Below are positions 15,469 through 36,250 of a DNA stretch of 36,250 nucleotides, piece after piece. Where the stretch lies: the IMG/VR virus record IMGVR_UViG_2870490042_000002; one strand, 5' to 3'. The position numbers and the translations under genes are program-made. The notes beneath the pieces were generated by a model, which had not been told where the DNA came from, did no database searches, and saw nothing but the letters and a program-made list of their open reading frames with translations. How positions within the stretch are numbered: the stretch's first letter is position 1; every line of letters starts with the position of its first letter. The DNA is from a virus. Lineage: Duplodnaviria; Heunggongvirae; Uroviricota; Caudoviricetes.

Positions 15469-15567
15469 CAGAGCGCTCCCCGAGCCGGGCGGCACGCCGG
15501 TCAATGCGGGCATTGATTGCCCTGACTGCGACCGGCGTCCACCGCCCACCCATTACCCGAGGTTGTC

Positions 15568-17967: not shown

Positions 17968-18406
17968 ATTTAAGCCTTTTGATGACAAACTTGCGGGGTT
18001 GATTGCGGCAATATCACCGGCGGGTCGGCGTAAGCTGGCCGCTGAAATAGCAAAGCAACTGCGCAGATCGCAACAGCAACGCATCAAACAGCAAAAAGCG
18101 CCTGATGGCACGCCGTATCAGGCGCGAAAACGCCAGCCGCTCAGAGCGAAGAAAGGGCGTATTAAGCGGACGATGTTTCAGAAGTTGCGAACGAACCGCT
18201 ACATGAAAGCCAGAGGCCGCGATGATGCAGCGGTGGTCGAGTTTACCGGCAAGGTGCAACGTATTGCTCAGATTCATCAGCTCGGACTTAAAGACCGGCC
18301 AAACCCACATGCTCAGGACGTGCAATACCCAGAACGGCAGTTGCTTGGTGTTGACTTTGGAGACAATTTGTTGATTGAAAAATTGGTTATTGAACATCTA
18401 AATTGA
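17960..18406 (+). CDS. S: Tail completion protein S (148 aa)
   Basis: Size and position match P2 S. Overlaps the R stop. Confidence 0.85.
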   Translation: MNEFKPFDDKLAGLIAAISPAGRRKLAAEIAKQLRRSQQQRIKQQKAPDGTPYQARKRQPLRAKKGRIKRTMFQKLRTNRYMKARGRDDAAVVEFTGKVQRIAQIHQLGLKDRPNPHAQDVQYPERQLLGVDFGDNLLIEKLVIEHLN

Positions 18407-18455
18407 CTATTTACGGTTGCAAGTCTCATAAGACGAATCCTAGCTTACCGACCTT

Positions 18456-18484
18456 TTGACCTTAATCATAAAAAATGGTAAATA
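18456..18484 (+). promoter_or_regulatory. Sigma70-like promoter of the S-V cargo cassette
   Basis: -35 TTGACC (18456-18461), 17-bp spacer, -10 TAAATA (18479-18484). RBS AAGGA lies 7 nt before the ATG at 18542. Confidence 0.4.
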
Positions 18485-18541
18485 TTGTTGTTGTCTGCTA
18501 CCTCGTTGATTTTTTAAGCTTTTACTTACAAGGATTGAAGC

Positions 18542-19591: not shown

Positions 19592-20156
19592 ATACTATGA
19601 TGGATATCGTTCATTATTTTTATCCTTAAAAGAAATTATTAAGGAGACGGAGCAACAGGCTATCCTTGAGGAAAATGAATTCTTCAATAAGAACATTAAT
19701 TTTTTTGTTAAATCGTATCTTATTACACTCTGCACTTATTTAGAGTCGTATTTGACTGAGGTTGCAACATGGCACTGCGATACCATCAATCGCAGGCTCA
19801 AAGCAGCCTGCTTGCCACACAATTTTTTGCTTTGGCGAGTCAAAAAAGATGTTAAAGATAAGGAGTTGAAATATATAGATGCTGATTTAAAGGTTGAGAA
19901 AAGTGAGGTGTCGGATAGCCTGTCTGGTAATCCTTACAAGACGATTAAGGCATTTTCTTATTTGGGTGTTAATCTTTTGAATTCGGCGGAATTTAATGCG
20001 AATAAGGATGTTGTGAATGCAGTGGTTGTAAAGAGAAATAACATTATTCATCATAACGACAATGCAAATGATATTAGTCTCACTGACGTAAGTGGTTATG
20101 TAGATCTGTTTGTATCCTATATGGCTGCGATAGATAATATGGTTTGTGGAAAATAA
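19578..20156 (+). CDS. HEPN-like protein with Rx4H motif (candidate RNase), 192 aa
   Basis: ATG at 19578 has RBS AAGGAAG and overlaps the upstream gene by 14 nt. Candidate catalytic motif in VVVKRNNIIHHNDN (R-x4-H). Family assignment from memory of HEPN-like families, unverified. Confidence 0.65.
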   Translation: MENTEYYDGYRSLFLSLKEIIKETEQQAILEENEFFNKNINFFVKSYLITLCTYLESYLTEVATWHCDTINRRLKAACLPHNFLLWRVKKDVKDKELKYIDADLKVEKSEVSDSLSGNPYKTIKAFSYLGVNLLNSAEFNANKDVVNAVVVKRNNIIHHNDNANDISLTDVSGYVDLFVSYMAAIDNMVCGK

Positions 20157-20171
20157 TGTTTTAATATTCGT

Positions 20172-20195
20172 GGGGCTGTTTGATAATTTAGCCCC
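20172..20195 (+). terminator. Weak hairpin downstream of the cargo cassette
   Basis: GGGGCT / AGCCCC stem with a 12-nt loop and no strong T-run. Confidence 0.3.
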
Positions 20196-20419
20196 ATATC
20201 TGCTTTGGTAAGGGTTCGGAAAATAATTTTATATCATGATGAAATGTCTATGAGATTTATTTCATTTCTAAGTTTTGCTATTTGATAAATCCTTTATGTG
20301 GCTCTCATTAATCTAATGGGATGAATTATACTGATATTTTAAAGCTGATAATTGTTGTTTCATCTCCCATAAAACTCCACTTGATTGCCACTAGCCTTTC
20401 CAGTCGGCATCCTTTCCAC

Positions 20420-21061
20420 ATGAATAATTTAAATTCTTTACAGGAAATCGCTCGGGCGATCCGCAACCTTATCCGCACCGGCATTGTGACCGACGTCGAC
20501 CCCGTCGAGGGGCTTTGTCGTGTACAGACCGGCGGGATGCAAACCACCTGGCTTAACTGGCTGACCTGCCGCGCCGGCCGCTCGCGGGTGTGGTGGGCTC
20601 CTTCTGTTGGCGAGCAGGTGCTCATTCTTGCCATTGGTGGCGAGCTGGACACAGCCTTTGTGCTGCCCGGCATTTTCTCTGATGACCATCCTGCGCCGTC
20701 GGCCTCGTCCGATGCGTTTCACGTCACTTTTCCTGACGGGGCGGTTATCGAGTACGAACCCGAAAACGGGGCGCTCACCGTATCCGGTATTAAAACCGCC
20801 GACGTTACCGCGTCGGAGTCCATTACCGCCATCGTGCCGGTGGTGCTAGTGAAAGCCGAAACCCGCATTACCCTCGATACTCCCGAGGTGGTGTGTACCA
20901 ACAAGCTCATCACCGGCACGCTCGAGGTGAAAAAAGGCGGGACGATGTCGGGGAACATCGAGCACACCGAAGGGAAATTTACCTCAAACGGCGTGCAGGT
21001 CGATGCCCACGATCATGGTGGCGTGGAGCCGGGCGGAAACTGGACGAAGGGGGTCAAATGA
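20420..21061 (+). CDS. V: Baseplate assembly/spike protein V (213 aa)
   Basis: ORF 20321..21061 trimmed to MNNLNSLQEIARAIRNL. Size and position match P2 V. Confidence 0.85.
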   Translation: MNNLNSLQEIARAIRNLIRTGIVTDVDPVEGLCRVQTGGMQTTWLNWLTCRAGRSRVWWAPSVGEQVLILAIGGELDTAFVLPGIFSDDHPAPSASSDAFHVTFPDGAVIEYEPENGALTVSGIKTADVTASESITAIVPVVLVKAETRITLDTPEVVCTNKLITGTLEVKKGGTMSGNIEHTEGKFTSNGVQVDAHDHGGVEPGGNWTKGVK

Positions 21062-21408
21062 CGGTGCGTTATCTGGGAATGAACAGCCAGACCGGCCTCA
21101 GTATTTCTGAAGTTGAGCACATCAGGCAAAGCGTGCGCGACATTCTGGTCACGCCAGTGGGCTCGCGCGTCATGCGCCGCGAATATGGCTCGCTGTTGTC
21201 TGCACTGATTGACCAGCCGCAGACCCCGGCGCTGCGTCTGCAGATTATGGCCGCGTGCTACTCCGCGATCCAGAGGTGGGAACCGCGCGTCAGTTTGTCG
21301 ACCATCACCGTTGAACGCGGAGAGGATGACGGCGCGATGTACGTCGATATGACCGGCACGCGTTCGGCATCAGGCCAGCCTTTTTCTATCACCCTTCCAC
21401 TGAGTTAA
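21058..21408 (+). CDS. W: Baseplate protein W (gp25-like), 116 aa
   Basis: ATG at 21058 overlaps the V stop (ATGA). MTVRYLGMNSQTGLSISEVEHIRQS. Size matches P2 W. Confidence 0.85.
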   Translation: MTVRYLGMNSQTGLSISEVEHIRQSVRDILVTPVGSRVMRREYGSLLSALIDQPQTPALRLQIMAACYSAIQRWEPRVSLSTITVERGEDDGAMYVDMTGTRSASGQPFSITLPLS

Positions 21409-21413
21409 ACGTT

Positions 21414-22322
21414 ATGGCTATTGTTGACCTGAGCCAGCTCGCCGCACCTGATGTTGTGGAAGAGTTGGATTATGAAACCATCCTGACAGAGCGAAAGGTG
21501 ACGCTCGTCTCACTCTATCCCGAAGAGCAACAGGACGCGGTAGCGCGTACGCTGACGCTTGAATCTGAGCCGATTGTGAAGCTGTTGCAGGAAAATGCTT
21601 ATCGGGAGATTATCTGGCGTCAGCGGGTGAATGAGTCGGCACGGGCGGTGATGCTGGCTTACGCTGCCGGTCATGACCTTGATAACCTCGGCGCAAATTA
21701 CAATGTTGAGCGTCTCGTTATTACGCCTGCTGATGAGACCACGCTGCCGCCAACGCCTGCCGTCATGGAATCGGACACCGATTACCGTCTGCGAATTCAA
21801 CAGGCTTTTGAGGGAATGAGCGTGGCCGGGTCGACCGGTGCGTATCAGTTTCATGGCCGCAGTGCTGACGGGCGGGTCGCCGATATTTCTGTTATCAGCC
21901 CGCAGCCTGCCTGCGTGACCGTGTCGGTACTGTCCCGGGAGAATAACGGCGCGGCATCCGGGGAACTGCTCGCCGTGGTGCGTAATGCTCTCAACGATGA
22001 GGATGTGAGGCCGGTTGCTGACCGCGTGACCGTGCAGTCGGCGGTCATTGTCGACTACACCATCGATGCCGCGCTTTATCTTTATCCCGGCCCCGAAAGC
22101 GAGCCGGTGCTCAGTGCGGCAAAAGCGAAGCTGCAGGCTTATATCAACGCGCAGCACCGGCTCGGGCGCGATATCCGCAAGTCTGCCATCTATGCCGCGC
22201 TTTACGTCGAGGGGGTGCAGCGTGTCGAACTTGTCGCGCCGGTCGCTGACATCGTACTCAATGAGACACAGGCGTCATATTGCACTGCTTACAGCGTAAA
22301 CATCGGGGGCAACGATGAGTGA
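21414..22322 (+). CDS. J: Baseplate assembly protein J (302 aa)
   Basis: 302 aa, same as P2 J; syntenic. Confidence 0.9.
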   Translation: MAIVDLSQLAAPDVVEELDYETILTERKVTLVSLYPEEQQDAVARTLTLESEPIVKLLQENAYREIIWRQRVNESARAVMLAYAAGHDLDNLGANYNVERLVITPADETTLPPTPAVMESDTDYRLRIQQAFEGMSVAGSTGAYQFHGRSADGRVADISVISPQPACVTVSVLSRENNGAASGELLAVVRNALNDEDVRPVADRVTVQSAVIVDYTIDAALYLYPGPESEPVLSAAKAKLQAYINAQHRLGRDIRKSAIYAALYVEGVQRVELVAPVADIVLNETQASYCTAYSVNIGGNDE

Positions 22323-22845
22323 TACCCGTCTGCTGCCGGTGGGCTCGTCGCCGCTTGAGGTGGCGGCGGCGCGCGCCTGCGCGGATATCGAAAATACGCC
22401 CGTCCCGCTGCGTCGTCTATGGAACCCTGACAACTGCCCCGCGAATCTGCTGCCGTGGCTGGCCTGGGCGTTTTCGGTTGATCGCTGGGATGAGAGCTGG
22501 CCGGAAGAAACCAAACGCGAGGTTATCCGCAGCACGTGGTTTATCCATGCGCATAAAGGGACGATAGGTGCGGTGCGTCGTGTGGTCGAGCCGCTCGGGT
22601 ATCTGATTAACGTGACGGAGTGGTGGGAGACGAACGACCCCCCGGGCACGTTTCGCCTTGATATCGGCGTGCTGGAGACCGGTATCACCGAGGAAATGTA
22701 TTACGAAATGGAAAGGCTGATTGCCGATGCAAAGCCAGCCAGCCGCCATCTTATTGGCCTGAATATTATCCAGGACATACCGGGTTATCTCTTCACCGGA
22801 GCCCTGACCTGGGACGGCGACATCATCACGGTTTACCCCGGATAA
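22315..22845 (+). CDS. I: Baseplate/tail protein I (176 aa)
   Basis: 176 aa, same as P2 I. Overlaps the J stop. Confidence 0.85.
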
Positions 22846-22856
22846 GTGAGAACACA

Positions 22857-24542
22857 ATGACAGTGAAATATAAAACCGTTATCACCCGAGCCGGTGCGGA
22901 AAAACTGGCGGCGGCGACGCTCCCGAACGGGAAGAAAGTCAATTTTGCTGTGATGGCCGTCGGGGACGGCGGCGGAAAACTGCCCGAACCGGACGCCAGC
23001 CAGACAAAACTCGTCAATGAGGTCTGGCGTCATGTCCTGAACAAAATCAGCCAGGACAAAAAACATAAAAATTATGTCGTGGCGGAGCTGGTGATCCCCC
23101 CGGAGACCGGCGGTTTCTGGCTGCGTGAAATGGGGCTTTACGATGACACCGGCACGCTGATTGCGGTCGGCAATATGGCCGAAAGCTACAAACCCGAGCT
23201 GGCGGAAGGATCAGGTCGTGCGCAGACGCTGCGTATGGTGATCATGGTGAGTGATATCGACACGGTCGAGTTGTCCATCGATACCACGCTGGTGATGGCG
23301 ACGCAGGATTATGTCGACGACAAACTCGCAGAGCATGAGCAGTCCCGCCGCCATCCTGACGCCACGCTGAAAGAAAAAGGGTTCACGCAGTTAAGCAGTG
23401 CGACCGACAGCACGTCTGAGGCGCTCGCCGCGACACCGAAAGCGGTTAAGGCGGCGTATGACCTTGCGAAAGGTAAATACTCGGCTCAGGATGCGACCAC
23501 GGCGCAGAAAGGGATTGTTCAGCTCAGTAGCGCCATCGACAGCGTGTCTGAGACGCTCGCCGCAACGCCAAAAGCGGTGAAAGCGGCGAATGATAATGCT
23601 GATGGCCGCGTTCCTTCCTCGCGCAAAATTAACGGACACTCCCTGAATGCTGACACCAGTGTTACCTCGCAGGATATTTTCGACGACCAGGCTATTGGGC
23701 TGGTAACGGAGGATTTAGACACCCTTAAAACGCCGGGTATTTACTTTCAGCCAGCGAATTCTAATACCTCAGCCGCCAGACATTACCCTGAAAATAACGC
23801 CGGGACGCTGGTCATTTATAAAAATGCCGGAGTGACTCAGGTATACCGGGTTTATAACAGCTCCCGGAGCTACTCGCGCAGTCAGTATTCAACAGGCGCA
23901 TGGACACCGTGGACGCCTGATGATGTTTTTCCGGTAGGCGCTCCCGTTGCGTGGCCGTCTGACAGTGTTCCTGCTGGCTATGCCGTCATGCAGGGACAAA
24001 CTTTTGATAAAGCCGCGTATCCGCTGCTTGCTGTGGTGTACCCATCGGGTGTTATTCCTGATATGCGGGGCTGGACAATCAAAGGTAAACCCGCAAGTGG
24101 GCGCGCTATTTTGTCTCAGGAGCAGGACGGCATTAAATCGCACGCCCACGGTGCCAGCGCATCGAGCACCGATTTAGGGACGAAAACCACCAGTGCTTTT
24201 GACCACGGAACGAAAACCACCACGACCTTTGACTACGGGACAAAAACCACTAATGCAACCGGCAACCATGCGCACACTTTTACCGTACACCGGGGAGATC
24301 AGGCCGGGGGACAGGCCGCCGACGGTAACGAAATAGCGACGGGAACGAAAACAACATCAACTGCAGGTAATCACGCGCATACCGTGGCGATTGGTGCCCA
24401 CAATCATAATGTCGGGATTGGCGCACACTCGCACTCCGTTGCTATTGGCGCACACGGTCACACCATTACGATCGCCGCGTCGGGTAATGCAGAAAACACC
24501 ATCAAAAACATCGCATTTAACTATATCGTGAGACTCGCATAA
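22857..24542 (+). CDS. H: Tail fiber protein H (561 aa) with repetitive His-rich C-terminal domain
   Basis: Conserved N-terminus [28 protein letters not shown]...AVGDGGG. C-terminus carries tandem repeats and HxH motifs. Confidence 0.85.
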
Positions 24543-25120
24543 TGACGTTTAAAATGACCGGAGAAAGCCGGACTATCACTGTGTATAACTTTCGTGCAGA
24601 CACCTGTGAATTTATTGGAAAAGGTGACGCCCTGATACCGGCATTTACCGGATTGCCCGCCTGCTGCACCAGTGAAAAGCCCCCGGAAACCCGAGACGGA
24701 TTTATTCCGGTTTATGACACTGAAAATGGTTGCTGGGCTATCACTGAAGACCACCGGGGTGAGGTTGTCTATGACACCGAAACAGGTCATGAGAGGGAGA
24801 TAACCGAGCCGGGTCAGTATCCGGCAGGAACAACACCGGTTGTGCCGGAAAACCCGTGGCAGAAATGGGATGGTAAAACATGGGTTGATGATGCTGATGC
24901 TGCACGTAATGCATTGACAGAGGCTGCGAAAAACAACAAAAACAGGCTTCTTAAACAGGCCAATACTGCGGTTGCGACATTACAGGACTCCGTTGATCTG
25001 GAGATGGCAACCGACGATGAAAAAACGCACCTCATTGCATGGAAAAAATACCGTGTTTTACTGAGCCGCATCCAGCCGGAGGATGCTCCGGATATTGAAT
25101 GGCCGCCGCTGCCAGTCTGA
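24542..25120 (+). CDS. G: Tail fiber assembly chaperone G
   Basis: 192 aa directly after H with a start/stop overlap. C-terminus THLIAWKKYRVLLSRIQPEDAPDIEWPPLPV is typical of Tfa proteins. Confidence 0.8.
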   Translation: MTFKMTGESRTITVYNFRADTCEFIGKGDALIPAFTGLPACCTSEKPPETRDGFIPVYDTENGCWAITEDHRGEVVYDTETGHEREITEPGQYPAGTTPVVPENPWQKWDGKTWVDDADAARNALTEAAKNNKNRLLKQANTAVATLQDSVDLEMATDDEKTHLIAWKKYRVLLSRIQPEDAPDIEWPPLPV

Positions 25121-25130
25121 TCCGACATCT

Positions 25131-25156
25131 GGCGGGCAGTTGCCCGCCTTTTCCTT
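25131..25156 (+). terminator. Rho-independent terminator after G
   Basis: GGCGGG-cagttg-CCCGCC hairpin followed by TTTTCCTTT. Confidence 0.5.
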
Positions 25157-25255
25157 TCCCGTCGTTGTGTCAGACCTTAGCCAACCCTGACAAATAGCCC
25201 GCACCCGCCACACAACAGAAAATATCACTCACCCCTTAACCACGGAGTTAAACGG

Positions 25256-26449
25256 ATGAGTGACTATCATCACGGCGTGCAGGTCATCGAGATTAACGAT
25301 GGCGTGCGCACCATTTCCACCGTTTCGACGGCCATCATCGGCATGGTCTGCACGGCCAGCGATGCTGACGAAAAAACATTTCTCCTCAATGAGCCGGTGC
25401 TCATTACGAACGTGCAGAGCGCTATCGGTAAGGCCGGTAAACAGGGCTCGCTGTCGGCGTCCCTGCAGGCTATCGCTGACCAGTGCAAGCCGGTCATCGT
25501 GGCCGTGCGTGTGGCCGAAGGTATTGAAGATCCGGAGAACCCCGAGGCGGCGCACAAACAGACCATTTCTAATATCATCGGCACCACCGACGAAAACGGC
25601 AAATATACCGGGCTGAAAGCCCTGCTGACGGCGAAAACCGTCACCGGCGTTAAGCCACGGATTCTCGGCGTGCCGGGGCTGGATTCACAGGAGGTGGCGA
25701 CCGCACTCGCGTCCACCTGTCAGAGCCTGCGCGCCTTTGGCTATGTCAGCGCATGGGGCTGTAAAACCATTTCCGAGGCCATCGACTACCGCGAGAATTT
25801 CAGCCAGCGTGAGCTGATGGTCATCTTCCCTGATTTTCTGGCATGGGACACCACGGCGAACGCGACTGCGACAGCCTGGGCGACGGCGCGCGCGCTCGGC
25901 CTGCGTGCCAAAATCGACCAGACGGTCGGCTGGCATAAAACCCTGTCTAACGTTGGCGTTAACGGTGTGACCGGCGTCAGTGCCTCAGTATCGTGGGATT
26001 TGCAGGAACCGGCGACCGACGCCAACCTGCTGAATCAGGCCGGTGTCACCACGCTTATCCGCAATGATGGTTTCAAGTTTTGGGGAAACCGTACCTGCTC
26101 GGATGATCCGCTTTTCCTGTTTGAGAACTACACCCGCACCGCGCAGGTACTGGCCGACACGATGGCGGAGGCGCACGCGTGGGCGATGGATAAACCCATT
26201 ACCCCGACCCTCATTCGCGACATCGTTTCCGGTATCAATGCCAAATTCCGCGAGCTGAAAACCAGTGGTTATATCGTTGACGGCTTCTGCTGGTACGACC
26301 CGGAGTCGAACGACACCGCGACCCTGAAAGTGGGGAAACTGTATATCGATTACGACTATACCCCCGTCCCGCCGCTGGAAAACCTGACCCTGCGCCAGCG
26401 CATCACCGATACCTATCTGGCGAACCTGTCGGACTCGGTCAACAGCTAA
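25256..26449 (+). CDS. FI: Tail sheath protein FI (397 aa)
   Basis: Size and synteny match P2 FI. Confidence 0.9.
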   Translation: MSDYHHGVQVIEINDGVRTISTVSTAIIGMVCTASDADEKTFLLNEPVLITNVQSAIGKAGKQGSLSASLQAIADQCKPVIVAVRVAEGIEDPENPEAAHKQTISNIIGTTDENGKYTGLKALLTAKTVTGVKPRILGVPGLDSQEVATALASTCQSLRAFGYVSAWGCKTISEAIDYRENFSQRELMVIFPDFLAWDTTANATATAWATARALGLRAKIDQTVGWHKTLSNVGVNGVTGVSASVSWDLQEPATDANLLNQAGVTTLIRNDGFKFWGNRTCSDDPLFLFENYTRTAQVLADTMAEAHAWAMDKPITPTLIRDIVSGINAKFRELKTSGYIVDGFCWYDPESNDTATLKVGKLYIDYDYTPVPPLENLTLRQRITDTYLANLSDSVNS

Positions 26450-26461
26450 GGAGCTCTGAGC

Positions 26462-26980
26462 ATGGCGTTACCCCGCAAACTGAAATACCTGAATATGTTC
26501 AACGATGGCCTCAGCTATATGGGCGTTGTTGAATCCGTCACCCTGCCAAAACTGACCCGCAAGCTGGAGAAATATCGCGGCGGCGGGATGCCGGGGGCGG
26601 TGTCGGTTGACCTTGGCCTCGATGACGATGCGCTGTCGCTTGAGTGGACGCTCGGCGGTCTGCCTGACATTGAATTGTGGGCGCAGTACGCCTCACCGGG
26701 TGCTGACAGCGTGCCGCTGCGTTTTACCGGCTCTTATCAGCGTGACGACACCGGCGCGATTTCTGCCGTCGAGGTGGTGATGCGTGGCCGTCATAAAGAA
26801 TACGACGGCGGTGAAAACAAGCAGGGCGAAAGCGGTACAACCAAAATGGCGACCGAGTGCGCCTATTACCAGCTCACGATCGACGGCAAAGAAGTCATCG
26901 AGATTGACGTGATCAACATGGTGCTGAAAGTCGACGGTGTCGACCGTATGGCAGAGCACCGCAAGGTGATTGGCCTGTAA
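26462..26980 (+). CDS. FII: Tail tube protein FII (172 aa)
   Basis: 172 aa, same as P2 FII. Confidence 0.9.
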   Translation: MALPRKLKYLNMFNDGLSYMGVVESVTLPKLTRKLEKYRGGGMPGAVSVDLGLDDDALSLEWTLGGLPDIELWAQYASPGADSVPLRFTGSYQRDDTGAISAVEVVMRGRHKEYDGGENKQGESGTTKMATECAYYQLTIDGKEVIEIDVINMVLKVDGVDRMAEHRKVIGL

Positions 26981-27034
26981 TCCTTCAACCGGTCAGTGAG
27001 GCTGGCCGGTCATTTACCCTGATGAGAAATTCGC

Positions 27035-27349
27035 ATGAAAAATATCAATGAGACTGCTGTTGCTGACACTGAGAACGTCAATCCGAATGTCGTTATTTTT
27101 GACACCCCGCTGATGCGCGGTGAGCAGAAAGTTGAGCAGGTCACCTTAACCAAACCGAATGCGGGAACCCTGCGCGGGGTGTCGCTGGCGTCGCTGGCAA
27201 ATTCCGACGTTGATGCGCTGATTAAGGTGCTGCCGCGCATGACATATCCGGCACTGACCGAGCACGAGCTCGCGCGTCTGGATGCGTCAGACCTGATTTC
27301 ACTGGCCGGTAAGGTGGTCGGTTTTTTGTCACCAGCTTCGGGTCGCTGA
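27035..27349 (+). CDS. E: Tail assembly chaperone E
   Basis: Position between FII and T. Ends just after the slippery TTTTTTG. Confidence 0.8.
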   Translation: MKNINETAVADTENVNPNVVIFDTPLMRGEQKVEQVTLTKPNAGTLRGVSLASLANSDVDALIKVLPRMTYPALTEHELARLDASDLISLAGKVVGFLSPASGR

Positions 27350-27504
27350 CCTTCCCGGAAAAACTGTCGGTCGATGACCTGATGGCGGATATTGCGGTGA
27401 TCTTCCACTGGCCGCCATCAGAGCTAAATTCCCTGAGTGTGACCGAGCTCCTGACATGGCGCGATAAGGCGCTGCAACGAAGCGGAAGCCATCATGAGCA
27501 ATAA
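27035..27504 (+). CDS. E+E' frameshift-extended tail chaperone (-1 programmed frameshift at TTTTTTG, 27322-27328)
   Basis: After the heptamer the -1 frame reads FFVTSFGSLTFPEKLSVDDLMADIAVIFHWPPSELNSLSVTELLTWRDKALQRSGSHHEQ to the TAA at 27502-27504, overlapping the T start. Confidence 0.6.
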
Positions 27505-29935
27505 CGTCAGAATCGAGGTGCTGCTGAACGCAGTTGACCGGGCAAGCCGCCCGCTTAAAGCGATTCAGAACGCCAGCAAATCCCTGTCTGGTGATATCCG
27601 CAATTCACAAAAAAGCCTGTGCGAACTTAATGTGCAGGCGTCCCGTATTGACGGATTCCGCAAAGCCAGCGCCCAGCTTGCCGTGACCGGTCATTCGCTT
27701 GAGAAAGCGAAACAGGAAGCGCAAGCCCTTGCCACACAATTTAAAAACACCGAGCGCCCGACGCGCGCGCAGGCGCAGGTGCTTGAATCGGCAAAGCGTG
27801 CCGCCAACGGGCTGCAGACGAAATACAACAGCCTCACTGAGTCTGTTAAGCGCCAGCAACGTGAACTCGGTGCAGTCGGTATTAATACCCGTAATCTGGC
27901 AAATGATGAGCGGGGGCTTAAATCGCGCATCAGTGAGACTACCGCGCAGCTTAATCGGCAGCGTGAGGCACTGGCGAAAGTCAGCGCACAGCAGGCGAAG
28001 TTAAGCCGGGTGAAAGCGCGGTATCAGGCCGGTAAATCACTGGCCGGAAACGCGGCGGCGGCTGGCGCAGCCGGTGTTGGTATTGCGACGGCGGGAACCC
28101 TCGCCGGGGTTAAGCTGCTGACGCCTGGTTATGAATTTGCACAGAAAAACTCAGAGCTGCAGGCCGTGCTCGGTGTCGACAAACAGTCGCCTGAAATGCA
28201 GGCGCTGCGTAAACAGGCGCGCCAGCTCGGTGATAATACCGCTGCCTCTGCCGATGATGCGGCGGGTGCGCAGATTATCATTGCCAAAAGCGGCGGCGAT
28301 GCGGCGGCCATTCAGGCGGCGACGCCGGTCACACTGAATATGGCGCTGTCGAACAAGCGCACGATGGAAGAAAACGCTGCGCTGCTGACAGGCATGAAAT
28401 CTGCTTTTCAGCTCTCTAACGATAAAGTCGCGCATATTGGTGATGTTCTCTCGATGACGATGAACAAAACCGCCGCCGACTTTGATGGAATGAGTGATGC
28501 GCTGACCTATGCCGCGCCAGTGGCGAAAAATGCCGGGGTAAGTATCGAAGAAACCGCCGCAATGGTGGGGGCGCTACACGATTCCAAAATCACCGGCTCG
28601 ATGGCGGGTACAGGGAGTCGTGCCGTTCTGAGTCGCCTGCAGGCGCCAACCGGTAAAGCGTACGACGCCATCAAAGAGCTCGGTATTAAAACGTCAGATA
28701 GCAAAGGCAATACGCGCCCGATATTTTCCATCCTGAAAGAAATGCAGCGCAGTTTTGAGAAAAACAATCTCGGAACGGGTCAGAAATCCGAATACATGAA
28801 AACCATTTTCGGTGAAGAGGCCAGCTCGGCGGCCGCCGTGCTGATGGCCGCCGCATCAAGCGGCAAGCTCGACCAGCTCACCGCCGCGTTTAAAGCCTCA
28901 GACGGTAAGACTGAGGAACTGGTTAAGGTTATGCAGGATAACCTCGGCGGCGACTTTAAAGAGTTTCAGTCAGCCTATGAGGCGGTCGGCACTGACCTGT
29001 TTGATCAGCAGGAGGGCTCACTGCGTAAGCTGACGCAGACGGCCACGCAATATGTGCTCAGGCTCGACGGCTGGATCCAGAAAAATAAAGGGCTGGCGAC
29101 CACCCTCGGCGTGGTGGTTGGTGGTGCGCTGGCGCTGATCGGTGTGATGGGCGGGATTGGCCTTGTCGCATGGCCGGTGGTGATGGGGATTAATGCCATC
29201 ATTGCGGCGGCTGGCGTGCTCGGTGTGGTTTTCAGTACGGTCGGCGGCGCGATTGTCACGGCCATTGGCGCAATCAGCCTGCCGGTGCTGGCGGTAGCCG
29301 GTGCAGTGGTGGCCGGTGCATTGCTGATCCGCAAATACTGGGAGCCGCTCGGTGCATTCTTCTCGGGCGTGGTGGAGGGACTGAAAGCCGCCTTTGCACC
29401 GGTGGGGGACATGTTTACCCCGCTCGCGCCGGTGTTTGACGCCATCGCTGAAAAGCTGGGTGTCGTCTGCCAGTGGTTTAAAGACCTGCTTGCGCCGGTG
29501 AAAGCCACGCAGGACACGCTCTCCAGTTGCAAAAATGTCGGCGTTACTTTTGGTCAGGCGCTGGCTGATGCGCTGATGATGCCGCTCAAGATGTTTAACA
29601 GCCTGAGCGGCAAGGTCGGCTGGCTGCTGGAGAAACTCGGCGTTATCAAAAAAGAATCCAGCGACCTCGACCAGACCGCAGCGAAAGCGAATAAGGCGTC
29701 CCCGAATGGCGGGTATATCCCTGCGACCGCAGGTTATGGCGGGTATCAGGCGTATCAGCCGGTCACAGCGCCCGCAGGCCTGTCTTATATCGACCAGAGC
29801 AAAAGCGAATACAACATCAACCTGCAGGGCGGAGTCGCACCGGGCAGTGACCTTGACCGCCAGCTCCGTGACGCGGTCGACAAACTTGACCGCGAGAAAC
29901 GTGCGCGTCAGCGATCCAGTATGAGACTCGACTGA
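27494..29935 (+). CDS. T: Tail tape measure protein T (813 aa)
   Basis: Long alpha-helical, Ala/Gln-rich N-terminus and Gly-rich hydrophobic segment. Size close to P2 T. Confidence 0.9.
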   Translation: MSNNVRIEVLLNAVDRASRPLKAIQNASKSLSGDIRNSQKSLCELNVQASRIDGFRKASAQLAVTGHSLEKAKQEAQALATQFKNTERPTRAQAQVLESAKRAANGLQTKYNSLTESVKRQQRELGAVGINTRNLANDERGLKSRISETTAQLNRQREALAKVSAQQAKLSRVKARYQAGKSLAGNAAAAGAAGVGIATAGTLAGVKLLTPGYEFAQKNSELQAVLGVDKQSPEMQALRKQARQLGDNTAASADDAAGAQIIIAKSGGDAAAIQAATPVTLNMALSNKRTMEENAALLTGMKSAFQLSNDKVAHIGDVLSMTMNKTAADFDGMSDALTYAAPVAKNAGVSIEETAAMVGALHDSKITGSMAGTGSRAVLSRLQAPTGKAYDAIKELGIKTSDSKGNTRPIFSILKEMQRSFEKNNLGTGQKSEYMKTIFGEEASSAAAVLMAAASSGKLDQLTAAFKASDGKTEELVKVMQDNLGGDFKEFQSAYEAVGTDLFDQQEGSLRKLTQTATQYVLRLDGWIQKNKGLATTLGVVVGGALALIGVMGGIGLVAWPVVMGINAIIAAAGVLGVVFSTVGGAIVTAIGAISLPVLAVAGAVVAGALLIRKYWEPLGAFFSGVVEGLKAAFAPVGDMFTPLAPVFDAIAEKLGVVCQWFKDLLAPVKATQDTLSSCKNVGVTFGQALADALMMPLKMFNSLSGKVGWLLEKLGVIKKESSDLDQTAAKANKASPNGGYIPATAGYGGYQAYQPVTAPAGLSYIDQSKSEYNINLQGGVAPGSDLDRQLRDAVDKLDREKRARQRSSMRLD

Positions 29936-29948
29936 GGGAGGGATAAAA

Positions 29949-30413
29949 ATGTTAATGGGGCTGGGCTTTTTCGTGTTTGAACGGCGCACCCTGCCGCATC
30001 AGTCAATGCAGTATTCGAAGGACTACCGCTGGGTGTCAAATGACCGTATCGGAAAACCCCCGGCTTATCAGTATCTCGGGGAGGGGGAAACCTCGCGTAC
30101 CCTGTCGGGCACGCTTTACCCTGAAATCACCGGCGGGCGTCTGTCACTGATGGCCATCGAACTGATGGCCGATGAGGGGCGCGCATGGCCGCTGATTGAC
30201 GGAACCGGCATGATCCACGGGATGTATGTCATCGATAAAGTGACTCACAACCACACCGAGTTATTCAGCGACGGCGCGGCTAAAAAAATCGAGTTTAGCC
30301 TGTCGCTTAAGCGGGTGGATGAATCCCTCGCGGCCATCTACGGCGACCTGAAAACACAGGCTGATAATCTGGTCACGTCTGCCGGTAACTGGCTCGGGGG
30401 GCTGGCGGGATGA
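29949..30413 (+). CDS. U: Tail protein U
   Basis: 154 aa with RBS GGAGGG; syntenic with P2 U. Confidence 0.85.
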   Translation: MLMGLGFFVFERRTLPHQSMQYSKDYRWVSNDRIGKPPAYQYLGEGETSRTLSGTLYPEITGGRLSLMAIELMADEGRAWPLIDGTGMIHGMYVIDKVTHNHTELFSDGAAKKIEFSLSLKRVDESLAAIYGDLKTQADNLVTSAGNWLGGLAG

Positions 30414-31573
30414 TAACGGGAATGACTATTCAGGCCGGGGCGCGCATTGCTCCTGATTTTATGCTCACGCTCGGTGGCGCAGATATCACACAGAATTTCA
30501 GCGACCGGCTTATCGGGCTGACCATGACCGACAATCGCGGATTCGAGGCTGACCAGCTTGATATCGAGCTCGATGATACCGATGGACTGGTCGAGCTGCC
30601 GCCGCGCGGGGCATCGCTGACCCTGTGGCTGGGCTGGCAGGGCTCGGCGCTGATTAACAAAGGGAGTTTTACGGTTGACGAAATCGAGCACCGGGGCGCG
30701 CCTGACAGGCTGACTATCCGGGGACGCAGTGCGGATTTTCGCGGGACGCTGAACTCGCGCCGCGAGCAGTCATGGCACGACACCACGCTCGGGGTGATTG
30801 TCGAGACTATCGCGCAGCGTAACAAACTGACGGCCAGCGTGGCTGATACCCTGAAAGCTGTTGCTGTGCCGCATATTGACCAGTCTCAGGAATCCGACGC
30901 GGCGTTTTTGTCCCGACTGGCGGATCGCAACGGGGCAACGGTTTCGGTCAAGGCCGGGAAATTGTTATTCCTGAAAGCCGGTAGCGCGATGACGGCCAGT
31001 GGTAAGGCCATCCCGCAAATGACCGTCGAACGCGGCGACGGCGACCGGCATCAGTTTGCCATAGCCGACCGCGAGGCATACTCCGGCGTAACCGCTAAAT
31101 GGCTGCACACCAGAGACCCGAAACCGCAAAAGCAAAAGGTGAAGCTCAAGCGCAAACCCAAAGAGCAGCACCTGCGTGCGCTGCAGCACCCGAAGGTTGC
31201 TAAAACATCGGCAAAGGCTAAAAAGAAGAAGGTGCAGGAAGCGCGGGAAGGTGAGTATATGGCCGGTGAGTCCGACAATGTTCTGGAACTCACGACCATC
31301 TACGCGACAAAGGCGCAGGCCATGCGCGCAGCTCAGGCAAAGTGGGACAGGATACAGCGTGGGGTGGCGGAGTTTTCGATCACGCTCGCCACTGGCCGCG
31401 CTGATTTATTTCCTGAAACGCCGGTGGCAGTGAAAGGCTTTAAGCGCGTTATAGACGAGCAGGCGTGGATAATCAGTCGTGTGGTACACAGCCTCAACGG
31501 GAGCGGCTTCACGACGGGCTTAGAGCTTGAGGTTAAGGTTTCTGATGTGGAGTATGAAAGCGAGGAAGTTTAA
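30410..31573 (+). CDS. D: Tail protein D (387 aa)
   Basis: 387 aa, same as P2 D. Overlaps the U stop. Confidence 0.9.
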   Translation: MITGMTIQAGARIAPDFMLTLGGADITQNFSDRLIGLTMTDNRGFEADQLDIELDDTDGLVELPPRGASLTLWLGWQGSALINKGSFTVDEIEHRGAPDRLTIRGRSADFRGTLNSRREQSWHDTTLGVIVETIAQRNKLTASVADTLKAVAVPHIDQSQESDAAFLSRLADRNGATVSVKAGKLLFLKAGSAMTASGKAIPQMTVERGDGDRHQFAIADREAYSGVTAKWLHTRDPKPQKQKVKLKRKPKEQHLRALQHPKVAKTSAKAKKKKVQEAREGEYMAGESDNVLELTTIYATKAQAMRAAQAKWDRIQRGVAEFSITLATGRADLFPETPVAVKGFKRVIDEQAWIISRVVHSLNGSGFTTGLELEVKVSDVEYESEEV

Positions 31574-31653
31574 CGGCGTGTGTTGTTTATGTGTTTGTTT
31601 TATAAGTAAAAATTAGTAAAATTAACACATTGAATACGCCGGAGACCCTCATC

Positions 31654-31875
31654 ATGTTTCATTGTCCGAAATGCCATCATGCCGCCCACGCCCGCACGAG
31701 TCGCTATTTTACTGATACCACAAAAGAGCGGTATCACCAGTGCACAAACATTAACTGCAGCTGCACGTTTGTGACCACTGAAACAGTCGAGCGTTTTATC
31801 GTGTCGCCGGGGGAAGTAGTACCCGCGCCGCCGCATCCGACATCATCAGGTCAGCAACAAATTCACTGGATGTGA
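31654..31875 (+). CDS. ogr: Late gene transcriptional activator Ogr (zinc finger), 73 aa
   Basis: ORF 31630..31875 trimmed to MFHCPKCHHAAHARTSRYFTDTTKERYHQCTNINCSCTF. Cys-x2-Cys...Cys-x4-Cys zinc finger as in P2 Ogr. Confidence 0.85.
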   Translation: MFHCPKCHHAAHARTSRYFTDTTKERYHQCTNINCSCTFVTTETVERFIVSPGEVVPAPPHPTSSGQQQIHWM

Positions 31876-31942
31876 CAAACGAGAAAGCCCCGCGATGTAC
31901 TGCACCCATTTTGTTGGACGATGAAATGGAATAGCCCCTAAT

Positions 31943-32464
31943 ATGTCAAAGCCAAAATACCCTTTTGAAAAGCGCCTTGAAGTCGTGAATCACTACTTCA
32001 CAACTGATGATGGTTACAGGATCATCTCGGCACGTTTTGGTGTCCCCCGAACCCAGGTCAGGACATGGGTTGCCCTCTATGAAAAACATGGAGAAAAAGG
32101 TTTAATTCCCAAACCTAAAGGCGTTAGTGCTGATCCAGAGTTGCGTATTAAGGTCGTGAAAGCTGTGATCGAGCAGCACATGTCCCTTAATCAGGCTGCT
32201 GCTCACTTTATGCTTGCTGGTAGTGGTTCTGTAGCCAGGTGGCTGAAGGTCTATGAAGAGCGCGGAGAAGCTGGTTTACGCGCGCTCAAGATTGGCACCA
32301 AAAGAAACATTGCAATATCAGTTGATCCAGAAAAAGCGGCATCAGCATTGGAGCTGTCAAAAGACCGACGCATTGAGGATCTTGAAAGGCAAGTTCGATT
32401 TCTTGAAACGCGGCTTATGTATCTAAAAAAGCTGAAAGCCTTAGCTCATCCCACGAAAAAGTGA
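31943..32464 (+). CDS. insJ: IS150 OrfA (InsJ, 173 aa, HTH)
   Basis: MSKPKYPFEKRLEVVNHYFTTDDGYRIISARFGVPRTQVRTWV. IS3-family OrfA with C-terminal leucine zipper. Confidence 0.85.
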   Translation: MSKPKYPFEKRLEVVNHYFTTDDGYRIISARFGVPRTQVRTWVALYEKHGEKGLIPKPKGVSADPELRIKVVKAVIEQHMSLNQAAAHFMLAGSGSVARWLKVYEERGEAGLRALKIGTKRNIAISVDPEKAASALELSKDRRIEDLERQVRFLETRLMYLKKLKALAHPTKK

Positions 32465-33312
32465 AAGTACTCAACGAGCTAAGGCAGTTTTATCCTCTTG
32501 ATGAGCTTCTCAGGGCTGCGGAGATACCGCGCAGTACGTTTTATTATCATCTAAAGGCTCTCAGCAAGCCTGACAAGTATGCGGACGTTAAAAAGCGTAT
32601 TAGTGAGATTTATCACGAGAATAGAGGCCGATACGGATACCGTAGGGTAACGCTGTCTCTTCATCGAGAAGGGAAACAGATTAACCATAAAGCTGTTCAG
32701 CGCCTGATGGGAACCCTCTCACTTAAAGCAGCGATTAAGGTCAAGCGATACCGCTCTTACAGAGGAGAGGTAGGGCAAACCGCCCCTAATGTTCTCCAAA
32801 GAGATTTCAAGGCTACGCGGCCAAACGAGAAGTGGGTTACCGATGTTACTGAATTTGCAGTCAATGGGCGCAAGCTGTATTTGTCTCCAGTAATAGATCT
32901 CTTCAACAACGAAGTTATTTCTTACAGCCTTTCGGAAAGACCAGTGATGAACATGGTTGAGAATATGCTCGATCAGGCATTCAAAAAGCTTAATCCTCAC
33001 GAGCATCCTGTTCTGCACTCTGACCAGGGATGGCAGTATCGTATGAGAAGATATCAAAATATCCTTAAAGAACATGGTATTAAACAAAGCATGTCCAGAA
33101 AAGGCAATTGTCTGGATAATGCTGTGGTGGAGTGTTTCTTTGGAACCTTAAAGTCGGAGTGTTTTTATCTTGATGAGTTCAGTAATATAAGCGAACTGAA
33201 GGATGCTGTTACGGAATATATTGAATACTACAACAGCAGAAGAATTAGCCTGAAATTAAAAGGTCTGACTCCAATTGAATATCGGAATCAGACCTATATG
33301 CCTCGTGTTTAA
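32461..33312 (+). CDS. insK: IS150 OrfB (InsK, DDE transposase catalytic domain)
   Basis: 283-aa ORF in the -1 frame relative to OrfA, GTG start at 32461. IS3-family DDE transposase core. Confidence 0.85.
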
Positions 33313-33627
33313 CTGTCCAACTTTTTGGGGTCAGTACACGAATGCGGGGCTTTTTGCAACTTTTAGATCAGTTATGTTAAGTACATTTCCGTCGGCAAAG
33401 TGCCAGGAGCGGGTTCTAGAGAGTGACTAACGTTAGTTATATGTGTAAAATTCCTTAAAAATAAGAAGGATATATATCCATGACAGCAATTGCATATTGG
33501 ATTAACTGAGAATCAATTGAGAAATTTTTGGGGGGGCAAAAAATAAACTAGCTAATTAAATTTTTATAAATAACGAATATAAGACTGCAAGCCATTTAAC
33601 AAAAGTTTATAAATAAAGGAGTCAGTT

Positions 33628-34479
33628 TTGAACAATATCCCCATATCTACTCAATGGACTTTAGACGCTACGGGTGAAGTTGGACGCTCATCAGTAAATT
33701 CTGTTTATATGATTATATGTCCTGCGACCGGCTCGAAAGGATCTGGTTTTTTAATAGATAATGGGTTAATAGTAACGAACGAGCATGTTATCACTGGATG
33801 CTCTACAAATCAGATTTTCGCAATTTCAGCTTATGGACAGAAGATTCCAATTTCTCAAAAATGGATAGATTCTGATCGCGATTTAGCTGTGCTGAGACCT
33901 GCCATTACCCAGACTGGTGGGCTAAGTATTGTTAAGGATAATGATCTTAAAGTTGGTGAATCAGTAACAACTTGGGGATACCCATTAGGATACAACGGTC
34001 CTGCACCGTTACTATCCGTTGGTTATCTAGCAGGATTTAACTCATACCAAACCGCCAAGGGACAAAAAAAACATCTAGTGGTAAATGGGGCATTTAACTC
34101 AGGAAATTCTGGTGGAGCTCTTTTAAAAGCTTCAGATAATAAAGTAATAGGTATTGTAGTGAGTAAGCATGCTCCTATCAGTCAATACCATCAATCAGCT
34201 ATTGAAGCTTTGTCTGAAAATATGAGTGGCGTCACCTATACCGCTACTAATGACGCTGGAGAAACTAAAAGTTTTGTAGAATCTCAAATTGTAGCAGAAT
34301 TATTGATTCATATGAGAAGTCTAACTCAAGTTATGATTGGAGAAGCAATTGCAGCAGAGGAATTACTTTCGATGCTTAGCGAAATTGACTTGAGTCCACC
34401 ACAATCTATGTCAAGAAATGCCTTATGTCATTGCGGGAGTGGAAAACGCTTCAAAGAATGTCATGGAAAGATATCCTAG
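33628..34479 (+). CDS. Trypsin-like (S1) serine protease with C-terminal SEC-C zinc-binding motif; cargo gene
   Basis: TTG start with RBS AAGGAG 5 nt upstream. Triad candidates His in VTNEHV, Asp in DLAVL, Ser in GNSGGAL. C-terminal CHCGSGKRFKECHG. No signal peptide. AT-rich. Confidence 0.75.
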   Translation: MNNIPISTQWTLDATGEVGRSSVNSVYMIICPATGSKGSGFLIDNGLIVTNEHVITGCSTNQIFAISAYGQKIPISQKWIDSDRDLAVLRPAITQTGGLSIVKDNDLKVGESVTTWGYPLGYNGPAPLLSVGYLAGFNSYQTAKGQKKHLVVNGAFNSGNSGGALLKASDNKVIGIVVSKHAPISQYHQSAIEALSENMSGVTYTATNDAGETKSFVESQIVAELLIHMRSLTQVMIGEAIAAEELLSMLSEIDLSPPQSMSRNALCHCGSGKRFKECHGKIS

Positions 34480-34628
34480 TAAGTACTTATATCAGTCTGA
34501 TAATGGCTCTTCAAATACAAAAGACTTCACTTACTCTGCCGTCATCTCTGCTCCTCGCTTATTGCAGACGGTCAAAAGCTTACAAGCTGTTGACTAGATG
34601 TGTTCTTACATTGTCAGTTAAAACAAAA

Positions 34629-34651
34629 GCCCCGCAAATGCGGGGCTTTTT
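34629..34651 (+). terminator. Rho-independent terminator after the protease cargo gene
   Basis: GCCCCGC-aaat-GCGGGGC followed by TTTTT. Near-identical to the terminator after ogr that is split by IS150. Confidence 0.55.
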
Positions 34652-34712
34652 GTATCGATGTGGTCAATGTGTGGACATTGATAGAAATAAATCCATTTAT
34701 TTCAGTAATTTA

Positions 34713-34739
34713 CATGCAAAAAATAAGCCCGTGTAAGGG
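34713..34739. repeat. attR core (22-bp direct repeat of attL core plus ATGCA), also the 3' end of cyaR
   Basis: Exact repeat of 478-499. Preceded by TGTGGACA (34668-34675) and TATCGATGTGGTCAATG arm sequence. Confidence 0.6.
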
Positions 34740-34804
34740 AGATTACACAGGCTAAGGAGGTGGTTCCTGGTACAGCTAGCATTTTATGGGTTATGTTTTT
34801 CAGC
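34718..34804 (-). ncRNA. cyaR: CyaR (RyeE) Hfq-dependent sRNA, 87 nt
   Basis: Reverse complement reads GCUGAAAAACAUAACCCAUAAAAUGCUAGCUGUACCAGGAACCACCUCCUUAGCCUGUGUAAUCUCCCUUACACGGGCUUAUUUUUU, matching E. coli CyaR as recalled, with terminator hairpin and U-tail. Confidence 0.75.
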
Positions 34805-34888
34805 GAAACGGATGATAACCTTAATAAATGCAGCTGTATGTGATCGGTTTCTAAGAATTTTCCATCCGGGAAAAATAATCGAAATTAA

Positions 34889-36250
34889 TCACTTACCGTG
34901 TGGGTTACGCGTGGTTTCCCCGGAGAAATTACGCATCAGCAGAGCGTAATTGAGCTCAAGATCCTGCGGGACCGGGAGCCACACAGTATAACCATCGCCT
35001 GGTGCGACCGGCATCGCTTCACCTTTGGCGTTTTCCATGTGCTCAAGGGTAAAGTTAATGTTGCCTTGCGGCGTCATCAGCTCAAGGCTGTCGCCAACGG
35101 AGAATTTATTTTTCACCGCTACCGCCGCGAGGTCCCCCTTGCGCTCACCGGTAAACTCACCAACAAACTGCTGGCGGTCAGAAACTGAATAACCGTATTC
35201 GTAGTTCTGATAATCGTCGTGAGTATGACGACGCAGGAAACCTTCGGTATAGCCACGATGCGCCAGACCTTCCAGAGTTTCCAGCAGGCTGGTATCGAAC
35301 GGTTTGCCCGCAGCGGCGTCATCGATAGCTTTACGGTAAACCTGTGCGGTGCGTGCGCAATAGTAGAAAGATTTAGTACGGCCTTCGATTTTCAGCGAAT
35401 GCACGCCCATTTTGGTCAGGCGTTCTACATGGGCGATGGCGCGCAGATCTTTCGAGTTCATGATGTAAGTGCCGTGCTCATCTTCAAACGCGGTCATATA
35501 CTCGCCCGGACGCTGGGCTTCTTCGATCATAAACACTTTGTCGGTTGGCGCGCCGATACCCAGCGTCGGCTCAACATTTTGCACCGGAATCGGCTCGTAC
35601 TTGTGTACGATGTTGCCAACGTCATCTTCTTTCCCTTCCTGGACGTTGTACTCCCAGCGGCAGGCGTTGGTGCAGGTACCCTGGTTCGGATCGCGCTTGT
35701 TGATATAGCCAGAGAGCAGGCAGCGACCGGAGTAGGCCATGCACAGTGCGCCGTGAACGAAGATCTCGATCTCCATATCCGGCACCTGATTGCGGATCTC
35801 TTCAATCTCTTCCAGCGACAGCTCGCGAGAGAGGATCACGCGGGTCAGGCCCATTTGCTGCCAGAATTTCACCGTCGCCCAGTTTACGGCGTTAGCCTGC
35901 ACCGAGAGGTGGATCGGCATTTCAGGGAAGTGCTCACGCACCAGCATAATCAGCCCTGGATCGGACATAATCAGCGCATCCGGCCCCATTTCCACCACCG
36001 GTTTCAGGTCACGGATAAAGGTTTTCAGCTTGGCGTTGTGCGGTGCAATGTTGACCACGACATAAAACTTTTTCCCCAGCGCGTGGGCTTCATTGATGCC
36101 GAGCTGAAGATTTTCGTGGTTGAATTCGTTGTTGCGCACACGCAGGGAGTAACGCGGCTGGCCCGCATAAACAGCATCTGCGCCATAAGCGAAAGCGTAA
36201 CGCATATTTTTCAGCGTTCCCGCCGGGGAAAGGAGTTCCGGTTTAAACAT
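34889..36250 (-). CDS. yegQ: U32-family peptidase-like protein YegQ (tRNA hydroxylation protein), 453 aa; host gene
   Basis: Full-length ORF ending at the window edge; MFKPELLSPAGTLKNMRYAFAYGADAVYAGQPRYSLRVRNNEF. Sequence and position next to cyaR match E. coli yegQ as recalled. Confidence 0.85.
   Translation of the reverse strand: MFKPELLSPAGTLKNMRYAFAYGADAVYAGQPRYSLRVRNNEFNHENLQLGINEAHALGKKFYVVVNIAPHNAKLKTFIRDLKPVVEMGPDALIMSDPGLIMLVREHFPEMPIHLSVQANAVNWATVKFWQQMGLTRVILSRELSLEEIEEIRNQVPDMEIEIFVHGALCMAYSGRCLLSGYINKRDPNQGTCTNACRWEYNVQEGKEDDVGNIVHKYEPIPVQNVEPTLGIGAPTDKVFMIEEAQRPGEYMTAFEDEHGTYIMNSKDLRAIAHVERLTKMGVHSLKIEGRTKSFYYCARTAQVYRKAIDDAAAGKPFDTSLLETLEGLAHRGYTEGFLRRHTHDDYQNYEYGYSVSDRQQFVGEFTGERKGDLAAVAVKNKFSVGDSLELMTPQGNINFTLEHMENAKGEAMPVAPGDGYTVWLPVPQDLELNYALLMRNFSGETTRNPHGK

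Follow-up and report, generated by a model that had tools for sequence, protein, structure and literature searches.

A P2-like prophage integrated at the terminator of the small RNA gene cyaR through a 22-nt attachment core

The stretch of DNA analyzed here (hereafter, the window; 36,250 nucleotides) almost certainly contains a P2-family prophage that was integrated at the small RNA gene cyaR, also known as ryeE, by Int-mediated recombination between attP and attB. In the mechanism that we propose, a temperate P2-family phage of 34.2 kb would have recombined its attP site-specifically with the chromosomal P2 site between yegR and yegQ, which we take to be locI, and the 22-bp crossover core is the last 22 nt of cyaR, a gene for a CRP-dependent, Hfq-binding sRNA. 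Given that attP carries these same 22 nt, recombination leaves a full-length cyaR at attR, which is then followed by the phage P arm, and the displaced copy of the core lies at attL beside int. P2-type prophages at cyaR are already known and common in E. coli, this being the textbook P2 site, and phage use of the P2 site or of ryeE has been in the literature since about 1992 to 2001. Thus, as an arrangement that is known from the literature and frequent in genomes, the prophage in the window is one more instance.

The core is a 22-mer, AAAAAATAAGCCCGTGTAAGGG, of which the whole window holds two exact copies on the plus strand, separated by 34,240 bp (Table 1). No third copy was found within the window at up to 3 mismatches, and dinucleotide-preserving shuffles contained no match (0/100; chance expectation 0). 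The identity between the two copies stops exactly at 22 nt, with not one base more on either side. On the minus strand, the attR copy runs directly into cyaR: the Rfam model CyaR_RyeE (RF00112) matches 34806..34721, its 100.7 bits being above the gathering score of 47, and the match spans positions 1 to 85 of the 85 in the model and is therefore not truncated. The terminator of CyaR folds as an 11-bp stem, AGCCUGUGUAA/UUACACGGGCU, followed by UAUUUUUU, and both folding and a terminator scan place the 3′ half of this stem, three loop bases, and the U-run wholly within the core, while GGAACCACCUCCUU forms the second CyaR hairpin, the stem-loop that contains CCUCC. A preliminary description of this DNA had proposed that the 22-bp core is also the terminator stem and U-tail of CyaR, that its attR copy is continuous with the full CyaR body, and that a second copy lies about 34 kb away at attL, and these proposals are borne out by the fold, the Rfam match, and the spacing of the two copies.

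Over the Rfam span, CyaR is identical in K-12, HS, and CFT073, and the body of the gene together with its upstream region (34740-34888) is identical to K-12 and HS. Base 34804 is a G, which presumably matches the +1 of K-12 cyaR, the Rfam span being 2 nt longer. A passage in PMC3333887 describes cyaR expression as CRP-dependent; the CRP-like half-site pair found upstream of cyaR is plausible by its position only, a scan of the CRP consensus over the window having returned 19 matches versus 14 expected, so that the pattern is not enriched. The score, the terminator with its U-tail, the CCUCC stem-loop, and the yegQ context with a candidate CRP-type promoter identify the gene as a member of RF00112.

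The junctions are best seen by comparison with chromosomes in which the site is empty. When window positions 1-499 are joined to 34740-36250, the resulting 2010 nt show 0 mismatches to the yegR-cyaR-yegQ locus in E. coli HS. This is the alignment to an unoccupied cyaR-yegQ locus that had been suggested as a check on the preliminary description, which passes it. The HS and CFT073 loci are prophage-free, with a gap of ~330 bp between yegR and yegQ, and the attP core and the attB of this real empty site are identical at 22 of 22 positions, with exact boundaries. The limits of the prophage had been described as precisely defined, and they are indeed known to the base, with the prophage body lying between the two cores. 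Furthermore, when 5,426 complete E. coli genomes were searched with window positions 34560-35000, 5,423 matched, and most E. coli matches begin at query position 159, which corresponds to window position 34718, the first base of the core. Within the window, the range 34629-34804 that first drew attention begins in the phage terminator hairpin (34625-34651), takes in the P arm and the core, and ends at the 5′ terminus of the sRNA.

Table 1. Features of the window around the attachment sites, the integrase, and the cargo beside attR
Feature	Position	Strand	Remarks
yegR, attL-side host flank	1..318	+	GC 36%; annotated equivalently in HS, K-12, CFT073, and AR_0137
B arm of attB	382..477	+	Also in empty sites; hairpin at 382-412; probably includes a P2-type P arm copy that has decayed
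Relic Int arm repeat TCGATGTGGTCAATG	430-444		Within the B arm
attL core	478..499	+	Displaced copy of the final 22 nt of cyaR
attL hairpin	485..527	-	Core plus phage-specific P′ segment (500-520), then U7 at 478-484; 57 nt downstream of the int stop codon
P2-like (Peduoviridae) prophage body	500..34717		tblastn with P2 proteins, Pfam, PADLOC, cos-like site, and AR_0137 RefSeq annotation
Homologue of the P2 Cox-binding region, predicted	521..594	+	P2 24399-24472, constant offset
Tyrosine integrase, 337 aa	584..1597	-	84% identical to P2 Int over residues 1-336 of 337 (tblastn)
P′ arm Int arm-type direct repeats	593..611	+	TGTGGACA ctg TGTGGACA = TGTGGACActgTGTGGACA; equals P2 24471-24489, "Int P' arm"
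IS3-family insertion, 1,443 bp	31896..33338	+	3-bp target duplication CGA; ends TGTACTG...
IS orfA (173 aa) and orfB (283 aa)	31943-32464 and 32461-33312	+	Pfam HTH_28 and rve
Trypsin-like peptidase with C-terminal SEC-C motif	33628..34479	+	Cargo between ogr and attR; Trypsin_2 1e-19, SEC-C 3.6e-7 (Pfam)
GC-rich hairpin flanked by A and T runs	34625..34651		Aligned at the P2 terminator position 24265-24288
P arm Int arm-type direct repeats	34659..34677	+	TGTGGTCA atg TGTGGACA = TGTGGTCAatgTGTGGACA; homologous to P2 24293-24320, "Int P arm"
A/T-rich homologue of the P2 IHF site, predicted	34684..34717	+	Aligned to P2 24324-24357
attR core	34718..34739	+	Final 22 nt of cyaR: loop CCC, 3′ half of the terminator stem, and UUAUUUUUU
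cyaR (ryeE) sRNA gene, full length	34718..34806	-	Rfam span 34806..34721; U-tail reaches 34718
CRP-like half-site pair TGTGATCGGTTTCTAA	34839..34854		Centre ~42 nt upstream of cyaR; 2 mismatches to consensus
yegQ (trhP), attR-side host flank	34889..36250	-	Extends past the window end; directly upstream of cyaR

Several components expected of a P2-type att system are also present. The integrase, whose gene ends 85 nt from the core, has an arm-binding N-terminal domain (Int_N, 2.5e-24) and a catalytic domain match (Phage_integrase, 2e-21) in Pfam, in agreement with the RefSeq annotation in AR_0137, and a Cox homologue, which Pfam likewise confirms, was found at 8e-42. Arm repeats lie on both sides of the core, at the offsets seen in P2, and fit the consensus tgTGGaCa given for P2-type Int arm sites in PMC3448106. 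The hairpin between the peptidase gene and the P arm occupies a position that is annotated in P2 (24265-24288) as "terminator for ogr transcript and F operon", and on the minus strand it likewise has the form of a second terminator, 70 nt beyond the end of cyaR. For the mechanism we follow the established P2 model, as given by the annotation of the P2 record, by PMC3448106, and by what is known of heterobivalent tyrosine integrases in general. In this model, Int bound at the core and at the arms would join attP to attB while IHF bends the P arm, and Cox would direct excision; by analogy, Int presumably acts here with IHF in integration and with Cox in excision as it does in P2, and the prophage should still be able to excise.

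The rest of the prophage is likewise of P2 type. All P2 proteins were used as tblastn queries against the window, and homologues with 49-84% identity were found in P2 order: int, C, cox, orf78, B, orf80, orf83, A, and orf91, followed by the cos site at 6925-6943 and a cargo region at 6943-9686; Q, P, O, N, M, L, and X; the lysis genes, including lysB and lysC, followed by R, S, a second cargo region at 18542-20156, V, W, J, I, H, and G; and finally FI, FII, E, T, U, D, and ogr, beyond which lie the IS and the protease. The same tblastn search of the window gave no match for P2 Y, K, lysA, orf30, fun(Z), tin, orf81, or orf82, and only a weak match for P2 old (residues 259-339, 28.7%). The cos-like site, GGCGAGGCGGGGTAAGCAT, has 2 mismatches to P2 cos, with 0 such matches expected by chance. 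Thus, the gene order, the homologues of replication, head, tail, and control genes, and the P2-type cos place the prophage in the Peduoviridae. Neither the 27-nt core AAAAAATAAGCCCGTGTAAGGGAGATT nor the near-identity over the genome that would mark phage P2 itself was found: the nucleotide identity to P2 is ~75% over 47% of the query, and the nearest phage is Enterobacter phage ENT4, with 84% over 55%. Judged by these alignments, the prophage is a mosaic with an ENT4-like backbone and a P2-type int/att module, P2-like and not P2. E. coli AR_0137 carries the same prophage, differing by 3 SNPs and the absence of the IS.

Several loci of the prophage differ from those of P2 in their content. Between the cos-like site and Q, the region 6943-9686 holds two genes, the first encoding an AAA_15/AAA_21 ATPase with DUF3696 (PADLOC NsnB 6.5e-55, AriA 3e-31) and the second a protein of 370 aa without a Pfam match; this pair is probably an anti-phage system. 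The P2 cargo locus (old/tin) is on the opposite side of cos. The region 18542-20156 replaces P2 orf30 between S and V and contains a DUF262/GmrSD_N protein (PADLOC NsnA 6.6e-80) and a RiboL-PSP HEPN protein; hence, NsnA-like and NsnB-like genes occupy two separate hotspots ~10 kb apart in one prophage. At 16268-16982, a different small ORF and a lysozyme are found instead of P2 Y, K, and lysA, with lysB and lysC being kept. Beside attR, the peptidase gene is bracketed by two copies of one GC-rich terminator hairpin, at ~31880-31905 and 34625-34651, the first of which is split by the IS, and no homologue of the peptidase was found in 50,697 phage records. The IS, which we take to resemble IS150, interrupts the ogr terminator hairpin within its loop; its boundaries were set by comparison with the AR_0137 prophage, and a repeat search found no terminal inverted repeats.

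An alternative account of the same sequence is that the prophage is cryptic, that is, that after its entry at cyaR it lost the capacity for excision or particle formation, so that the att repeats are historical scars. We consider this possible though improbable. The splitting of the ogr terminator hairpin by an IS3-family element would be compatible with decay, but the element is missing from the near-identical AR_0137 prophage and is hence recent. The homologue of DUF3850/orf91 is annotated as frameshifted in AR_0137, and it corresponds to two overlapping ORFs in the window (5907-6401 and 6298-6642); the P2 record, however, labels A and B as essential but not orf91, and the essential P2 genes are all present here as full-length ORFs with 49-84% identity. 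Although this attP variant is absent from sequenced free phages, it occurs in ~40 genomes from varied hosts, and both cores are perfect and both sets of arm repeats intact, which speaks against a cryptic state.

A different question is whether integration at the sRNA is neutral for the host. The preliminary description stated that CyaR remains intact, and this holds for the body of the gene, which is the same as in K-12, HS, and CFT073, but not for the end of the U-run and what follows it. In the empty site of HS, the run has 7 T and is followed by ATGCAT; at attR in the window, it has 6 T followed by the phage sequence GCATGT (window 34712-34724), the block of identity with attB terminating at the last T of the U-run. 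Similarly, the suggestion that the phage sequence reconstitutes the CyaR terminator holds only trivially, in that attP has the last 22 nt in identical form. Lysogeny therefore alters the U-tail length of CyaR and its 3′ flank, and one may ask whether this changes CyaR output and subtly rewires the CRP-CyaR regulon. The length of the poly-U tail of sRNAs governs Hfq action, as work on SgrS indicates, and at attR the loss of one T is accompanied by new downstream sequence and by the second terminator mentioned above. Nevertheless, the stem of the CyaR terminator is the same after integration, the empty site of CFT073 also has 6 T, and in K-12, whose CyaR is the one characterized for regulation and targets, 6 T are likewise followed by phage remnant sequence (ACGCGT). 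Since K-12 cyaR lies beside this remnant, the canonical K-12 CyaR 3′ end is already phage-flanked. An effect of integration on the regulon seems quite unlikely to us, and CyaR is presumably expressed normally in the lysogen.

The K-12 remnant raises another possible route of entry. As the preliminary description stated, this is the locus at which K-12 carries a P2 remnant, and the D′/ogrK remnant does sit exactly at cyaR in that strain. It consists of ogrK and a D′ pseudogene and resembles the window in its attR, in which P arm, core, and cyaR follow one another, in its identical CyaR, and in its 6-U tail running into phage sequence. It keeps only ~0.6 kb, whereas the window holds a complete prophage with two perfect cores. 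While attR is complete in K-12, the attL core there is cut to 18 nt (AAAAAATAAGCCCGTGTA) and fused straight to the D′ pseudogene, which indicates that the remnant arose by a deletion reaching from the interior of the attL core as far as gene D. One could imagine that the prophage in the window replaced or extended a resident remnant of this kind by homologous recombination and inherited its core repeats. The K-12 type of remnant, in which a P arm adjoins cyaR, is frequent, and even the "empty" B arm is P-arm-like and offers some homology, but this homology extends over merely ~35 nt, no D′ or ogrK remnant sequence is left in the window, and the left junction is a clean join of B arm, core, and P′ arm with flanks that equal the empty site at 0 mismatches. 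We regard such an origin as very improbable. That the 22-bp repeat is a product of chance or of misassembly, unrelated to the sRNA, can be discarded, given the shuffles, the Rfam score, and the matching empty site on the one hand and the recurrence of the arrangement in independent complete genomes on the other.

Indeed, the arrangement is widespread. The attL-type junction, in which B arm, core, P′ arm, and int follow one another, is present in 805 of the 5,426 complete E. coli genomes (~15%), and a P arm beside cyaR in 1,172 of them (~22%). Escherichia ruysiae is a second lysogen species, with the true P2-type core of 27 nt. Barreiro and Haggard-Ljungquist reportedly defined both the 27-nt locI core and the K-12 remnant in 1992. 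A passage in Bobay, Rocha and Touchon (2013; PMC3603311) describes E. coli ryeE as "previously known to be targeted by phages" and credits this to Wassarman et al. (2001), and Rousset et al. (2022) make no mention of cyaR, att sites, or ogr.

Compared with P2 at its preferred site, the prophage in the window shares the chromosomal position, the core sequence, the Int family (84% aa identity), the arm repeats and their spacing, the position of the ogr-side terminator, and predicted IHF-like and Cox regions at equal offsets. It differs in having 22 rather than 27 nt of identity with attB, in a core hairpin that P2 lacks, in a backbone that is ~75% identical over 47%, and in the Y, K, lysA, and cargo loci. 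ENT4 is alike in the layout of its terminator and arms, whereas its core is unrelated, and no CyaR-like Rfam match was found in this phage. The possibility that the core co-varies with a host sRNA in ENT4 was considered and rejected; its core being unrelated, that phage provides no evidence of this.

Integration at the 3′ end of structured RNA genes is known from other phages. P2-like phages of the 186 type use tRNA genes and Fels-2 and SopE-phi use ssrA (PMC3448106), and passages in PMC3603311 and PMC3333887 place Salmonella prophages at ryeB/sdsR. The case described here is similar to these in that attP copies the 3′ end of a structured RNA, the gene is regenerated, and the target includes a hairpin with dyad symmetry. 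It is different from tRNA and tmRNA integration in that the target is the terminator of an Hfq-dependent sRNA and not a tRNA-like fold and in that the duplication is of just 22 nt. The orientation is also different: in the usual arrangement at tRNA genes, the intact gene adjoins int, whereas here it is attR, the end far from int, that has the intact RNA gene, and the fragment adjoining int is the displaced one.

The length of the core deserves a comment, given that the P2 attP core in NC_001895 (24356-24382) is AAAAAATAAGCCCGTGTAAGGGAGATT, that is, the same 22-mer followed by AGATT. In the window, a different sequence takes the place of the 21 nt that directly follow the core toward int in P2, and the identity with attB is 22 nt as opposed to the 27 nt of P2. 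The canonical P2 P′ arm was seen in the sampled lysogens O157 AR-0427, PEC41, UPEC69, and E. ruysiae, the P′ variant of the window in ~40 genomes from varied hosts at identities of at least 95%, and a third P′ variant, whose core is also 22 nt, in 19 genomes. Neither non-canonical variant was found in any free phage record, the best match there to the P′ variant of the window being 78%. The 22-nt core is thus a minority attP variant. As natural attP variants share only 22 nt with attB, the identity needed is bounded to those 22 nt, and as the identity is 22 nt and not 27, the Int/att pair here is not literally that of P2. Such a natural attP lineage, with just 22 nt of identity, bounds the region of strand exchange.

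In the same lineage, the displaced core at attL can pair with the P′ segment that adjoins it. RNAfold gives this attL hairpin -31.3 kcal/mol (z -3.0) and also -22.4 (z -3.3), whereas the canonical P2 P′ arm sequence is without such a hairpin (z 0.0 to 0.3); a simple terminator scan of attL made no call for the hairpin at 485-527. The predicted fold, followed by its U-run downstream of int, weakly suggests an int terminator in which half of the CyaR terminator is put to a second use. The phage of this attP lineage may have separately evolved a partner strand of its own, and the shared core may also terminate int.

A further set of observations concerns the empty sites themselves. The B arm region (window 380-477) keeps one Int arm repeat and has a hairpin at the position of the ogr terminator. 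In local alignments of the empty-site B arm with P arms, the score was not reached by any of 2000 shuffles, and the two share TCGATGTGGTCAATG and further collinear matches, with homology over only ~35 nt; in Escherichia sp. MOD1, a longer and less decayed version of the P arm precedes the core. These alignments provide good support for reading the empty-site B arm as a decayed P2-type P arm. As the B arm of the "unoccupied" site is P-arm-like, the site has the appearance of a fossil attR left by an ancient P2-like prophage. The exact 22-mer was found to be the 3′ end of a full-length CyaR in 17 of the 18 loci tested, occurring in Kluyvera spp., two Enterobacter hormaechei genomes, Shigella, and Escherichia. 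The interval between yegS and cyaR varies among genomes, and the divergence always starts from the first A of the core. For instance, this interval contains yegR in E. coli, a Gp49/HTH toxin-antitoxin-like pair in K. georgiana, a 2-thiouracil desulfurase in one E. hormaechei, and nothing in E. ruysiae, and unknown ORFs are also seen.

The most extensive reading of these observations is that the empty cyaR locus is a fossil attR, that the use of the CyaR terminator by P2-type phages predates the diversification of E. coli, and possibly that yegR is stranded cargo, which as a whole we find doubtful. A phage origin of yegR, to which its low GC content (36%) might point, is speculation: a tblastn search of 50,697 phage records with yegR returned two matches, both apparently with host flank beside attL, and thus gave no support for yegR as phage cargo. 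If the fossil attR reading were true, repeated integration and excision might act as gene conversion that holds the last 22 nt of CyaR constant in Escherichia, Shigella, Kluyvera, and some Enterobacter, with drift in the other strand of the stem. This homogenization of the CyaR 3′ end by phage cycling is speculative.

The main value of the analysis lies in correct annotation, as the boundaries of the prophage can be given to the base and cyaR survives lysogeny. Furthermore, the locus is a clean case of a phage that uses the terminator of an sRNA as other phages use the 3′ ends of tRNAs.
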